A DNA stretch of 53,317 nucleotides from an uncultured archaeon (GTDB lineage Archaea > Asgardarchaeota > Thorarchaeia > Thorarchaeales > Thorarchaeaceae): assembly GCA_964458565.1 (NCBI GenBank), contig CAYWJO010000002.1, positions 137,008 through 190,324 on the forward strand. The letters run 5' to 3'. The first letter of the stretch is position 1. Every line of letters begins with the position of its first letter. The notes under the pieces were generated by a model. The model worked only from the letters and a program-made list of their open reading frames with translations, did not search any database and was not told the origin of the DNA. The position numbers and the translations under genes were made by a program. Of this stretch, positions 20,486-37,556 are shown one piece after another.

Positions 20486-20595
20486 AGCCCCGTGGTGTAG
20501 CGGTCCAGCATCAGCGGTTCTGGAGCTCCAGAGCTGCATATGCTCCGCAGCGGAAATCCCGCTGGACCCAGGTTCGAGTCCTGGCGGGGCTACCA
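20486..20595 (+). tRNA. tRNA-Gln(CTG) with a 34-nt intron at 37/38 (20524-20557) and encoded CCA
   Basis: Acceptor stem AGCCCCG/CGGGGCT-A-CCA; anticodon stem AGCGG/CCGCT; CTG at 20520-20522; T arm CCAGG-TTCGAGT-CCTGG; canonical bulge-helix-bulge (TTCT/GGAA helix, 3-nt bulges GGA and ATC, GCT/AGC). Confidence 0.96.
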
Positions 20596-20740
20596 ACTCT
20601 TCTTATCATCGACAATTTACGAATTTTTGTATCGATAAATGCAAAATAGCATAATTTGGAATAATGGTCGATATATAGACGGGTTTGATTTTTTAAGGAG
20701 TGACCTATACATTTATAGGGAAAATGGGGAATTAATTATC

Positions 20741-20839
20741 GGAGACCATTGACTCGCACATTATGCTCATCTGTCCGAGTTTCCTGTTGTCTGCAACCCT
20801 CCCGGCAAGACAGCTCAACAGGGTGCGAGTCGTTTCTCC
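20741..20839 (+). ncRNA. Putative structured ncRNA or cis-regulatory RNA, family unknown (three-way junction)
   Basis: GGAGA/TCTCC, GACTCGCAC/GTGCGAGTC, GCTC/GAGT and CCTGTTG/CAACAGG helices; TTTATA 29 nt upstream; followed by T-rich sequence. Strand is not certain. Confidence 0.55.
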
Positions 20840-20904
20840 TTTAAATTTCTCATCATGGCAAGCTTCATATCTTGGCGTAGTTGCCACCAACAGTGTGACA
20901 GACC

Positions 20905-31305: not shown

Positions 31306-32952
31306 ATGACAGCTGATGAAGTAAAACGAATCCCCGAAGAACCTATTACGCATGGAAAAGGTGAGTCTCTCGCCAGATATCACGTTGAGCGATACCCTGT
31401 GAGACCAATGCCTTACACTACACAATCAATCTGTCCTGAGTGTCTACTCAGTGATGACAAAGTCCACGTGATTGATGCCACAGTATATGAAGAAAATAAC
31501 AAAGTTATGTACAAGAAGTCATGTGAAACACATGGCGAATTTATTGATGTTTATTGGGGCGATGCAGAGATGTTCAAAAAAGCACAGACTTGGTGGTACA
31601 AGTCTGTTGGTCTTGATAATCCTCGAACTGAAAGTATCAAAGGATGTCCTGAGGACTGCGGCCCCTGCACTGAGCATAAATCCCACACTGCTCTTGCTTT
31701 ACTTGATGTCACCAACCGTTGCAACTTGAGATGTCCAATTTGTTTCGCCGTTGCAGCAGAAGGTGGTACTGTCTACGAACCCAGTCCTGAAGAAGTTTTA
31801 GAGATGATGAGAAATCTTCGAAGCAATAAACCCGTTCCTGCTCCAGCTCTTCAATTTGCAGGCGGTGAACCCACTGTTAGCAAACATCTACCGCAATATA
31901 TCAAATGGGCTAAAGAACTAGGTTTTAGACATGTTCAGATTGCAAGCAATGCAATCCGAATCGGTAAGAGCAAAGAGTATCTGCAAGAATTGCGAGATGC
32001 TGGCCTTTCAACCATATACATGCAGTTTGATGGTGTTACTTCAGGTCCCTACTTGGAAGCTAGGGGTACAGACTTGCTTGCTGTCAAGAAACAGGCTATT
32101 CAAAATGCTCGAGAAGTTGGAATGGAATCAATTGTTCTAGTACCAACAGTTGTGCGTGGTGTGAACAGTGATCAACTTGGAGATATTATTCAATTTGCTG
32201 TTGATAATCGTGATGTCATCCGATGCGTAAACTTCCAACCCGTTAGTATAACAGGACGTATTGATCACGATGAACGTCTTAAATGGCGTATCACAATTCC
32301 TGACTGCATTCATCTCATTGAAGAGCAGACTGGAGGAAAGATACCTGCAACTGAATGGTATCCAGTTCCTGCAATGATGCCTGTTGGTCGAGCACTTGGT
32401 CTAATGAAAGGTGGACCAGAACTCGAGTTAAGCTCACACTTTGCATGTGGAATGTCGACATTCATCTACATTGAGGATGATGGTTCATACAAACCAATAA
32501 CAGACCTCATCGATGTTGACAAGTTTATAGTTCTATTAGAAGAAATCTCCAACCTTTATGCCGATGGTGCGCGCGGTGCAAGTAAAAGAGCTAAAGCTAA
32601 ACTAGCTGCTGGGATGCGTCACTTCAAGAAGAAGGGAATGATCAAAGATTTGGTCGGTTTATTCCTTGATCGGGGTGACTACGATTCATTAGCTCAATTC
32701 ATGAGGCGTATCATTATGATAGGAATGATGCACTTCCAAGATCCTTACAACTTTGATCTTGAAAGAATCCAACACTGTGACATCAATTATGCAGTACCTG
32801 ACGGAAGAATTATTCCCTTCTGCACAATGAATACAATTCACAGATCGCGTGTTGAGGACAAGTTCTCCGTTCCAATAGAGGAGTGGCGTGCAAGTCATAA
32901 GCCCACTCAGGTTGAAGAGGATAGCGTCACAAAACCATTCGGTAGTGAATAG
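31306..32952 (+). CDS. tes: Radical SAM tetraether lipid synthase (Tes / GDGT-MAS family)
   Basis: N-terminal CPEC...CETH, GCP.DCG.C..H, DVTNRCNLRCPICFA, QF.GGEPT, NFQPVS.TGR, H..CG, MHFQDPYNFD.ER..HC.I.YA.PDGRIIPFC. Confidence 0.88.
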   Translation: MTADEVKRIPEEPITHGKGESLARYHVERYPVRPMPYTTQSICPECLLSDDKVHVIDATVYEENNKVMYKKSCETHGEFIDVYWGDAEMFKKAQTWWYKSVGLDNPRTESIKGCPEDCGPCTEHKSHTALALLDVTNRCNLRCPICFAVAAEGGTVYEPSPEEVLEMMRNLRSNKPVPAPALQFAGGEPTVSKHLPQYIKWAKELGFRHVQIASNAIRIGKSKEYLQELRDAGLSTIYMQFDGVTSGPYLEARGTDLLAVKKQAIQNAREVGMESIVLVPTVVRGVNSDQLGDIIQFAVDNRDVIRCVNFQPVSITGRIDHDERLKWRITIPDCIHLIEEQTGGKIPATEWYPVPAMMPVGRALGLMKGGPELELSSHFACGMSTFIYIEDDGSYKPITDLIDVDKFIVLLEEISNLYADGARGASKRAKAKLAAGMRHFKKKGMIKDLVGLFLDRGDYDSLAQFMRRIIMIGMMHFQDPYNFDLERIQHCDINYAVPDGRIIPFCTMNTIHRSRVEDKFSVPIEEWRASHKPTQVEEDSVTKPFGSE

Positions 32953-35015: not shown

Positions 35016-35471
35016 TTGCATAGCGTGGATTCAGAATCGGATCGTGAAACAATAGCAAAACTACTGAAAGGACGCACCATGAGTGTTTATGCTCTTCTAC
35101 TGACGAAAGAAAAAATGGGTGTTAGAGATATACAGAGAGCCCTTGGATTCTCTAGTCCTAGTTTAGCCCTTCATCACTTGACTAAACTTGCTGAGCTAGA
35201 TCTTGTCGAGAAAGATGTACACGGCGAATACTCAGTGATTAAGACCGTACGTGCAGGGTCTCTATCGTTGTTTGTGAAAATAGGGAAAGTGTTGTTACCT
35301 CGCTTTCTTTTTCTCATCACTCTATTCTCAGCTATGCTGGTCCTCTACATGTTATTCTTCTTCTCATGGCCGCCCTCAGGGGGAGATATAATGTATCTTG
35401 CACTTAGTATCATCGCAATCATTTTGATATTGCATGAGTCGCGTAGGATGTGGTTACTCAAACCATTTTGA
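35016..35471 (+). CDS. Winged-helix DNA-binding protein with two C-terminal TM helices
   Basis: LKGRT..VY..LL...MGVRDIQRALGFSSPSLA.HHL.KL..L.LVEK...GEY, followed by two hydrophobic helices. Confidence 0.85.
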   Translation: MHSVDSESDRETIAKLLKGRTMSVYALLLTKEKMGVRDIQRALGFSSPSLALHHLTKLAELDLVEKDVHGEYSVIKTVRAGSLSLFVKIGKVLLPRFLFLITLFSAMLVLYMLFFFSWPPSGGDIMYLALSIIAIILILHESRRMWLLKPF

Positions 35472-35558: not shown

Positions 35559-35572
35559 GAAAGGTTAATAAG
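35559..35572 (+). promoter_or_regulatory. BRE/TATA-like promoter with no credible CDS downstream (may drive the putative ncRNA)
   Basis: GAAAGG-TTAATAAG; by analogy with 18770, the predicted TSS is about 35593-35595. Confidence 0.5.
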
Positions 35573-35593
35573 ATTCAAAATAAAAGATGAATC

Positions 35594-35803
35594 GGACTGT
35601 GTATAACACACTATGGCGGGTGCGTGGGCTAATTTTCGTTACATGCCCTCAATTACGAAACTCCCCCCTCCTACCACGATTTCCCGCGTACCCGCCACCT
35701 TCTTCTTATTCAAAATCATCGTCAAGATTATCTGTCCTAATCTAATGACCGTTAACTTGATTCTGTTTCAAATGTACACTTTCTCTGTTTATTTAGTATA
35801 GTC
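35594..35803 (+). ncRNA. Putative structured ncRNA, family unknown (core 35614-35697)
   Basis: 15-bp helix TGGCGGGTGCGTGGG/CCCGCGTACCCGCCA with two G-U pairs that work only on the + strand; inner TTTCGT/ACGAAA; second hairpin 35714-35762; possible closing helix GACTGTGT/GTATAGTC. Confidence 0.6.
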
Positions 35804-35806
35804 GGA

Positions 35807-36454
35807 TCATGTCTTTTGCATCACTAGGTAAATAGAACTCGTATTTTGCCTTTTGAATTCATCAATTTCTCTCTTTATTGGTCTAGTGATTTGCATATCT
35901 AGCTCGGATTCTCTTTCTTCAATAAATTTCTGCAGCGGTTCGTAGTACTCCTTCCACCAAATATCACTAGATATCTCAAATGAACTAAGAAGGGTATAAT
36001 CATATTTTAAGATCAGTTTCAATTTCCTATCGAGATTATCCATCTGATCATGAATAACAAGGAATCCGCTATCCTTGATATGCTCTCTCCAATCCCTTAT
36101 GCTATTCTCAAATCCAAGGACAAAAACTGAACCTTCCGCCCAGATAATATCAAATACCTTCCCACCAAAATCCATGTCACGAATCGACATAACAATTGGG
36201 CTAATTCTGTCCCTAAATCCTACCTGAATGCATTTTTTGCGAAGCCTACTGATAAGATCTTGATTATTGTCAATCGCTGTAATATGCCCATCGCTCAATC
36301 TGCATAACTCTAGAGTTGGTACTCCAGAACCGCACCCAACATCCAGAATTGATGGATTCTCTAATTTTGGGAGCATATGAAATGCAATTCGTGTGTATTT
36401 GAGTAATTTCGATCTGAATTGATCTCGATCGATACTAGTCTGCATTGATTTCAC
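35807..36454 (-). CDS. Class I SAM-dependent methyltransferase
   Basis: ILDVGCGSG..TL.L, AID, FDIIWAEGS, WW.EYY.PL. Confidence 0.9.
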   Translation of the reverse strand: MKSMQTSIDRDQFRSKLLKYTRIAFHMLPKLENPSILDVGCGSGVPTLELCRLSDGHITAIDNNQDLISRLRKKCIQVGFRDRISPIVMSIRDMDFGGKVFDIIWAEGSVFVLGFENSIRDWREHIKDSGFLVIHDQMDNLDRKLKLILKYDYTLLSSFEISSDIWWKEYYEPLQKFIEERESELDMQITRPIKREIDEFKRQNTSSIYLVMQKT

Positions 36455-36641
36455 ATCTATCTTAATAAATCACATTCGGCTATTTCTTTTCCGAACCGCG
36501 AAATATTCTCCAAATATGCTTTGAACAATCCTATTTTACATTGTCCATCAAGAATTATTCTGATGGTTCTCCCTTTCTTTAATCCCTATGCTATCTTTAA
36601 TTAGGTATCTAGAGTTATTTCGTTTCAGGGTACGAACAATA

Positions 36642-37556
36642 ATGAAGTCACGTCGAAATCTTAAGGTTCTGCAAGTTGATGCTTTTACAACCACTCCTTT
36701 TGGTGGAAACCCCGCAGCTGTAGTAATGGATGCAGATAATCTAAGTGAAGATACAATGTCCAAAATTGCTCGAGAGATGAATGTTCGAGAGACTGTCTTT
36801 GTTTCTCGTTCATCACATGCTGATTACCATTTTAAATTCATGACACCAGAAGGTCCCCTTGGATTCTCCGGTCATCCTACTATAGCAGCTTTTCATGCAC
36901 TTGTCGAGGAAGGAATGGTAGAGTTAGTTAATGATGTCACAATGTTTAGCCTCGAAACATCAACAGGGATACTCCAGGTCGAGATAGTAAAGGATGTTAC
37001 TTCTAACATGCATGAAGTTCAAGTCACACATAAAAAACCTAAATTCCTTACCACTTATGACCCATTGGAAATCGCGGAAGCCTTGGGTCTCTCATTAGCT
37101 GATATCATGGCTGGACTCCCTGTACAAACTGTGAGTACTGGAACTCCGGTTCTTGTTGTGCCTGTTAATTCTATGAAGTCTCTTGAGAGAATCAAGATTA
37201 ACGTGGAAGCACTATCTCAACTCTGTAAAGATGGCGATTATGTTTCGATTCAGGTCTTTGCAAAAGATGTACTTGAAGTAACTTCTGATATCCATGCAAG
37301 ACACTTCGCCCCTGCACTTGGAGTGAATGAGGATCCCGTATCAGGGATTGGAGCAGCAGCAACGGCAAGTTATGTGATCCGATACGGTATAATGGACACG
37401 GACATCCCTGTAAGAACTGTGGTCATTGAACAAGGGCACTATGTCAAACGTCCTGGAAAGGTCATTGTAGAGGTCAAGGGTGATACTGATCATATAGACC
37501 AAGTCAAAGTAAGCGGAACTGGTGTTGTTGTTCTCAAAGGGCGCCTCTATTTCTGA
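36642..37556 (+). CDS. PhzF family (diaminopimelate-epimerase-like) protein
   Basis: QVDAFT..PFGGNPAAVV, IAREMN..ET.FV, FSGHPTIA, STG.P, RHFAP..GVNEDPVSG, IEQG; ATG 36642 preferred over 36588. Confidence 0.92.
   Translation: MKSRRNLKVLQVDAFTTTPFGGNPAAVVMDADNLSEDTMSKIAREMNVRETVFVSRSSHADYHFKFMTPEGPLGFSGHPTIAAFHALVEEGMVELVNDVTMFSLETSTGILQVEIVKDVTSNMHEVQVTHKKPKFLTTYDPLEIAEALGLSLADIMAGLPVQTVSTGTPVLVVPVNSMKSLERIKINVEALSQLCKDGDYVSIQVFAKDVLEVTSDIHARHFAPALGVNEDPVSGIGAAATASYVIRYGIMDTDIPVRTVVIEQGHYVKRPGKVIVEVKGDTDHIDQVKVSGTGVVVLKGRLYF

Follow-up and report, generated by a model that had tools for sequence, protein, structure and literature searches.

Masking of ribosome-binding sites has been reported or proposed for the cuckoo RNAs of Alphaproteobacteria (PMC4615179), for RsaE and for sRNA41 and sRNA154 of Methanosarcina mazei (PMC5867862). 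The cuckoo RNAs (RSs0680a-d, SmelC397/ar14) are built of two to four adjacent hairpins, each with the motif CCUCCUCCC (PMC4615179), and the two M. mazei RNAs are archaeal intergenic sRNAs which, according to a review, mask ribosome-binding sites by their loop sequences (PMC5867862). Archaeal genes may also carry BHB introns, whose hallmark is a 4-bp helix flanked by 3-nt bulges (PMC4090602); they are described from tRNA and rRNA genes and from the cbf5 pre-mRNA (PMC4090602; see also PMC2738675). For the Asgard archaea, almost no small RNAs have been catalogued. Y RNAs and nematode stem-bulge RNAs measure about 100 nt, have paired ends, a large pyrimidine-rich internal loop and a pyrimidine tail, and occur as several paralogues.

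Here we analyse a 53,317-nucleotide stretch of DNA (the window) from an uncultured archaeon of the Thorarchaeaceae, the genome containing it being designated G000. A sequence-only reading had proposed a plus-strand, independently promoted, structured small RNA of about 105–115 nt at 35559–35803, and the comparative data support this proposal; judged from sequence, the region almost certainly contains a genuine RNA gene. It appears to be a real, uncatalogued small RNA gene outside every family tested, and literature searches found no description of this Thorarchaeota RNA family. The predicted RNA resembles the cuckoo RNAs in being small and multi-copy, with variable stems, invariant C-rich loops of anti-Shine–Dalgarno (anti-SD) type and lineage-restricted paralogues. 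It differs from them in having one nested, end-to-end stem and two different seeds, one of which, with the motif CCUCCUACC, lies in an internal loop, so that membership of that group was rejected; moreover, it is archaeal, has relatives with BHB introns and gives no sequence or Rfam match. Whereas sRNA41 and sRNA154 have defined targets, the Thorarchaeota RNA forms a three-paralogue family, and no homology to them was detected (Rfam negative). With the Y and stem-bulge RNAs it shares size, paired ends, pyrimidine-rich internal loop, pyrimidine tail and paralogues, but its type A stem runs through 14 bp without interruption and lacks the bulged-C Ro-binding site, and neither Ro60 (86 genomes) nor an Rfam match was found.

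RESULTS

A predicted RNA gene between convergent genes

The predicted gene occupies about 35594–35710 on the plus strand (Table 1) and lies between an HTH gene (plus strand, ending at 35471) and a convergent class I methyltransferase gene (minus strand, ending at 35807). All parts pointed out by the sequence-only reading were recovered at the positions given: the BRE/TATA-like box, the pairing of 35614–35628 with 35683–35697 including two G–U pairs, the TTTCGT/ACGAAA hairpin, which corresponds to the inner helix, an exposed CCUCCU within a C-rich strand (unpaired probability in the fold about 0.9) and, after the stem, a pyrimidine tail at 35698–35708. The 15-bp stem is real, but its conserved length is 14 bp, the outer U35614–A35697 pair being lost in relatives. 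A longer form of about 210 nt, with a second hairpin and an end-to-end helix (35709–35803), had to be abandoned: similarity to relatives ends near 35700–35715, and 35709–35806 has no homologue among the fetched loci.

Table 1. Features of the predicted RNA gene, in positions of the window
Feature	Position	Strand	Basis	Remarks
BRE and TATA box	35559–35572	+	Sequence	TATA core at 35565–35570
Short 5′ leader, about 20 nt, weak hairpin	35594–35614	+	Fold	Peculiar to the window copy, not conserved
Outer stem, 5′ arm, 14 nt	35615–35628	+	Covariation	
Box 1, U-rich linker and 5′ strand of inner helix (35634–35639)	35629–35640	+		Nearly invariant
Box 2, apical loop ACAUGCCCUCA	35641–35651	+		Anti-SD-like seed 1
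Inner helix, 3′ strand	35655–35660	+	Fold, alignment	
Box 3, unpaired C-rich strand	35661–35677	+		Seed 2; CCUCCU at 35667–35672
Outer stem, 3′ arm, 14 nt	35683–35696	+	Covariation	
Conserved ACC(U) tail, then pyrimidine run	35697–35710	+		Likely terminator

The segment 35610–35712 (103 nt) folds with z = −6.6 on the plus strand versus −2.3 on the minus strand, and none of 200 shuffles folded as well on the plus strand. A search of Rfam 15 with the window gave 0 hits, with nothing but noise (E ≥ 0.49) at the locus, and five paralogue loci likewise gave 0 hits; the RNA is thus uncatalogued. ARAGORN finds no tRNA, split tRNA or tRNA-like RNA at the locus, and a tRNA half was rejected since box 3, although its sequence reads like a tRNA 3′ end, lacks a T-stem partner. 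A small peptide from the 62-codon ORF at 35613–35801 was also rejected: third positions are invariant, the spacer has non-triplet indels and the frame is not kept.

Covariation of the outer stem around a nearly invariant core

The outer stem covaries strongly among homologues. In 38 sequences of type A, to which the window copy belongs, it is 97% paired, with compensatory change at 10 of its 14 pairs. None of 500 shuffles matches it on any measure; kinship among the sequences inflates this test, with which the slid-register control nevertheless agrees, pairing falling to 38–54%. The stems of paralogue types B and C differ in sequence yet stay paired, in agreement with the type A stem. Over 42 distinct stems, the non-Watson–Crick pairs comprise 70 G–U, 3 A–C and 20 others, and it is this excess of G–U over A–C that fixes the plus strand. 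The inner 6-bp helix is 98% paired but invariant in sequence, without compensatory change, and for this reason is given here as a predicted helix.

The core between the arms (about 50 nt) is nearly invariant, being nearly identical over 16 genera, and is more conserved than the stems that flank it. Box 2 is common to all three paralogue classes in an alignment that was selected on the box 2 motif; UGCCCUCA is retained as well in a sister-family homologue that was found independently. Of 89 type A copies, 88 agree exactly in the 3′ part of box 3; the C-run of this box is 5–8 long across the paralogues, and a few type C copies lack CCUCCU. Both boxes are single-stranded in the fold.

Distribution, paralogues and synteny

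A BLAST match of about 90 nt, 80–95% identical and confined to about 35614–35700, is present in 35 of the 36 same-family genomes. The named records matched were Thorarchaeota or unclassified archaea, and one bin labelled Hermodarchaeota has Thorarchaeota-like copies and synteny. A two-box pattern occurs in 83/86 Thorarchaeota family genomes, at 1–8 copies each (G000 has eight core copies), and in 2/314 other Asgard genomes, the one inspected having neither stem nor seed. One diverged homologue was found in a sister family (G037, E = 2.7e-6), which retains a long stem along with the U-run, UGCCCUCA and the C-rich strand as far as CCUCCUA; in the other Asgard genomes the phylum-wide search, made with a sequence model without base pairs, returned only noise (E ≥ 0.001). 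Viral copies were not found with the strict pattern, and three loose hits are attributable to chance.

Three types of copy, A, B and C, can be told apart by the spacer that separates the two boxes. Each type occupies its own syntenic site and has its own TATA box, and we regard the three paralogues as ancient. The type A site lies, in most genomes, between Tes and PhzF. In the window, the Tes gene (tetraether synthase, NF045702) is at 31306–32952 and the PhzF-family gene at 36588–37556; four ORFs separate the former from the RNA, and the methyltransferase gene separates the RNA from the latter. Extra copies in some genomes adjoin DNA methylase, HsdR or IrrE genes.

A type A-like subfamily (L064, L081, L107, L113, L145, L157, L158) has the same promoter and leader and is represented by several copies in each genome, at unrelated places of which some adjoin restriction-modification genes; it forms a minimal promoter-plus-RNA module whose spread seems recent. 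At L145:311–763, near an RNA copy in another genome, lies what looks by eye like a homologue of the window HTH-membrane gene (35016–35471). At L156:288, the 5′ arm seen in L125 (L125:7240) is joined to the type A 3′ arm before PhzF, and the mismatched stem of this chimera implies recombination inside the invariant core.

Promoter, leader and tail

Nearly all orthologues are preceded by a TTTAATAAG-type box. The distance from the TATA box to the first stem base is 28–33 nt in types B and C, and the RNAs of these two types would start at or near the stem. When the same spacing is applied to the window copy, its transcript would start near 35594 (35594–35595), giving an RNA of about 115 nt. With a fixed-spacing TATA box and a pyrimidine tail, the gene has, as far as its sequence tells, the promoter and terminator of its own that a stand-alone gene should have.

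The promoter of most type A orthologues is located 65–90 nt upstream, and the leader often folds into a hairpin. A 30–65-nt leader with complementarity to the core is present in most orthologues; of 36 leaders, 27 contain a stretch whose pairing with box 3 or box 2 surpasses that of shuffles (p ≤ 0.05, with two tests per leader and related genomes). The leader of the window copy showed no seed pairing above shuffles (p = 0.35). The type B, type C and sister-family copies have no seed-pairing leader either, and such a leader is therefore dispensable.

The tail is conserved as A (76/77), C (76/77) and C (77/77), followed mostly by pyrimidines. Together with the last stem base it reads CACCU, resembling the 16S 3′ end seen in G009. 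Mimicry of a tRNA acceptor end was rejected, since Thorarchaeota tRNA genes encode CCA and the stem of this RNA is followed by ACC and then U/C. Some Thorarchaeota 16S genes are themselves interrupted: in that of G019 (L168) the last helix contains an insertion, and the match in G009 (L169) spans 2.4 kb.

BHB introns in relatives of the window copy

Relatives of the window copy, which itself has no intron, contain eleven distinct inserts of 30–32 nt at six positions of the core. Three of these are in type A copies (L341, L342, L353), and box 3 is broken in four relatives. Each insert presents a central 4-bp helix, then 3-nt bulges, and its removal restores the core. The central helix has 4/4 pairs in nine inserts and 3/4 in two, the register having been picked among at most a few equivalents; by our estimate, a 4/4 helix arises by chance with a frequency of about 0.02 per register. 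The inserts thus resemble the BHB introns of archaeal tRNA, rRNA and cbf5 transcripts in helix and bulges, and many G000 tRNA introns (many of which are 29–34 nt long) in length; they differ in their host, a small RNA without a tRNA fold, and in having six insertion points. G000 encodes two splicing-endonuclease domains, at C1:27246 and C5:17476.

These motifs strongly imply that the RNA is spliced and functional; no other observation speaks as strongly for a product that is RNA and for which an unbroken core matters. That a non-tRNA gene has repeatedly gained tRNA-type introns, at six positions, suggests a part for the archaeal splicing endonuclease in the maturation of a small RNA, and the family offers a handle on how BHB introns move between genes. 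The L162 intron and the intron of a G000 tRNA-Met(CAU) gene (C11) have a 13-nt hairpin-loop word in common. Loops like it are found again in further introns of both sRNA and tRNA genes, a hint that these 30-nt introns may come from a single mobile pool.

Search for targets of the anti-SD-like strands

CCUCCU is the anti-SD sequence of 16S rRNA, and Thorarchaeota 16S rRNA ends in the anti-SD. The SD sites used by G000 genes are GGAGG (331 sites) and GAGGUG (100 sites), counted in the bin about 15 nt upstream of the start. Complementarity to such SD-type sequences is shared by box 2, box 3 and the tail, and it is the two anti-SD-like strands that the sister-family homologue has preserved. The seeds of the anti-SD regulator proposed by the sequence-only reading are conserved and single-stranded; with G000 start regions they pair no better than shuffled seeds. 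The best duplex of box 3 there was −24.1 kcal/mol, as compared with −25 to −28 for shuffled seeds; for box 2 it was −19.7 versus −17 to −18 kcal/mol, with equal tenth ranks, all in a ranking based on crude start-codon calls. Genome-wide, the complement of box 3 was found only in the family's own copies. Two candidate targets, uS11 and uS7, were rejected, their sites being kept in 1/30 and 2/29 cases, respectively. Seed-plus-ATG patterns sought family-wide gave 20–80 sites per genome, and their orthology was not traceable.

DISCUSSION

A three-paralogue RNA present in nearly every Thorarchaeota genome, with a core conserved above its stem, is likely to have a core cellular job. Its role as an anti-SD translational regulator is plausible from the seeds, and the RNA probably dampens translation. 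The mechanism that we tentatively prefer, rating it possible but short of probable, is SD masking of ribosome-binding sites in the manner of cuckoo RNAs or RsaE. The window gene, which is paralogue A among the three members of the Thorarchaeota family, would then encode a stand-alone small RNA that acts in trans and is presumably transcribed from its own TATA box. The ends of this RNA would pair into the covarying 14-bp stem, acting as a sequence-free clamp. To judge from sequence and folding, the clamp displays the apical loop and the C-rich strand as two fixed single strands, each of them complementary to G-rich SD-type sequences. Most likely, these strands would pair with the ribosome-binding sites of many mRNAs and thereby block 30S loading. 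In most orthologues the complementary 5′ leader may turn the seeds off, a device that the window copy would do without; in intron-bearing copies, the tRNA splicing endonuclease would have to splice the RNA to restore the seeds. Action in trans is supported by the promoter and terminator-like tail, by the three unrelated syntenic sites and by variable neighbours on either strand. The almost invariant 50-nt core, however, exceeds what SD pairing needs, and this counts against SD masking, as do the start-region duplexes that fail to surpass shuffled seeds, the non-conserved uS11 and uS7 sites and the few type C copies devoid of CCUCCU.

Alternatively, the RNA may be a stable housekeeping RNP or decoy RNA, whose invariant core and ACC tail would be recognized by proteins (an Sm-like ring seated on the U-run, say, or a KH-type protein, or a factor with affinity for the 16S 3′ end), and which would act like a Y RNA or 6S RNA rather than by pairing with mRNA. 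We consider this a serious contender, albeit a doubtful one. Its general plan, with several paralogues of about 100 nt, ends that pair and an internal loop rich in pyrimidines, is that commonly ascribed to Y RNAs, and the near identity of the core over 16 genera, an inner helix that is invariant rather than covarying, a tail resembling the 16S 3′ end and the lack of a stand-out mRNA target among G000 start regions all fit such a role, as does the accumulation of BHB introns and 5′-truncated remnant copies, as in tRNA genes. Against it, TROVE/Ro60 (PF05731) was found in 0/86 genomes, positive controls having been matched, and a Ro60-bound Y RNA is accordingly not supported. Furthermore, Rfam gives no Y RNA, sbRNA or 6S match, no partner protein gene adjoins all three loci, and the seed-pairing leaders suggest that the seeds act by base pairing.

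A more speculative proposal, which we think unlikely, is that of an ancient Thorarchaeales housekeeping RNA, as abundant as tRNA and of Y-RNA-like build but without Ro60, which would mimic the 16S 3′ end and titrate either SD-led mRNAs or the ribosome or an initiation factor, as a global translation switch gated by its self-pairing leader and, in some lineages, by tRNA-endonuclease splicing. If true, this would add a new class to the archaeal RNPs and give tRNA splicing a new way of controlling a regulator.

The invariant single strands inside variable stems would also suit an H/ACA-, C/D- or U3-like guide for processing or modifying another non-coding RNA, and type B, were its last stem pairs to open, would finish in ACA plus 3 nt. 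We nevertheless hold a guide function to be quite improbable, because duplexes with 16S, 23S, RNase P and SRP RNA, the four RNAs compared, were no better than with shuffled targets, K-turn and guide boxes are absent by inspection, and in type A the tail is ACC and the loop-to-tail distance about 35 nt versus 14–16. A cis-acting element, such as a riboswitch, attenuator or 3′ UTR element for flanking genes like Tes or PhzF, seems very improbable: the type A position between these genes and the alternative leader pairings of many orthologues would be in keeping with it, but the RNA has a promoter and a pyrimidine tail of its own, the genes that intervene before PhzF, in the window too, are unrelated and often oppositely oriented, and the neighbours of the B and C loci are unrelated. 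Least credible of all, to the point of being remote, is a DNA-level element (a MITE, an ssDNA attachment site or another recombination signal), to which one might ascribe the 1–8 copies per genome, many at contig ends, the extra copies beside DNA methylase, HsdR and IrrE genes, and two G000 copies that are 5′-truncated and fused to a gene fragment. Against it, BHB introns make sense at the RNA level only, the three loci are syntenic across the family, the G–U asymmetry speaks for RNA, no target duplication surrounds the window copy, no transposase adjoins the syntenic copies, and serving as an insertion site may be a secondary property, as it is in tRNA genes. A MITE in particular was rejected on finding the opposite pattern, variable termini with a fixed interior, in addition to the absence of target-site duplication and the syntenic loci.

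The two truncated G000 copies, at C2:971–1222 (L003) and C16:687–938 (L002), are of type B and lack the 5′ arm. They are fused at the same point to a shared promoter and a 26-codon gene fragment, amid repeated small membrane-protein genes; related sites occur at the C14 end, the C52 start and the C16 start, where C16 opens with another 3′ arm. The arrangement resembles an array of cassettes with the RNA gene as its foundation. G000 also contains orphan tRNA 3′ ends (T-loop to CCA) at C19:46771, C19:48300, C32:31573, C32:37737, C32:38323, C47:24236, C45:62, C25:995 and C39:32115, some of them following intact tRNA genes at a spacing of 0.5–1.5 kb, which suggests that small gene cassettes were inserted there repeatedly. 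Both the truncated type B copies and the orphan tRNA 3′ ends look like insertion remnants; no integrase linked to them was found in G000, where the only tyrosine recombinase detected lies on a different contig.

The window itself holds a tRNA-Gln(CUG) gene with a 34-nt intron at 20486–20595, found by ARAGORN -i and missed by intron-blind scans. It is immediately followed by a structured intergenic stretch (20650–20880) that has no homologue in the fetched loci or in the rest of G000; an 8-mer that this stretch has in common with 35730–35737 falls outside the conserved RNA. Finally, G000 carries a tRNA-Sec gene at C1:18648–18738.
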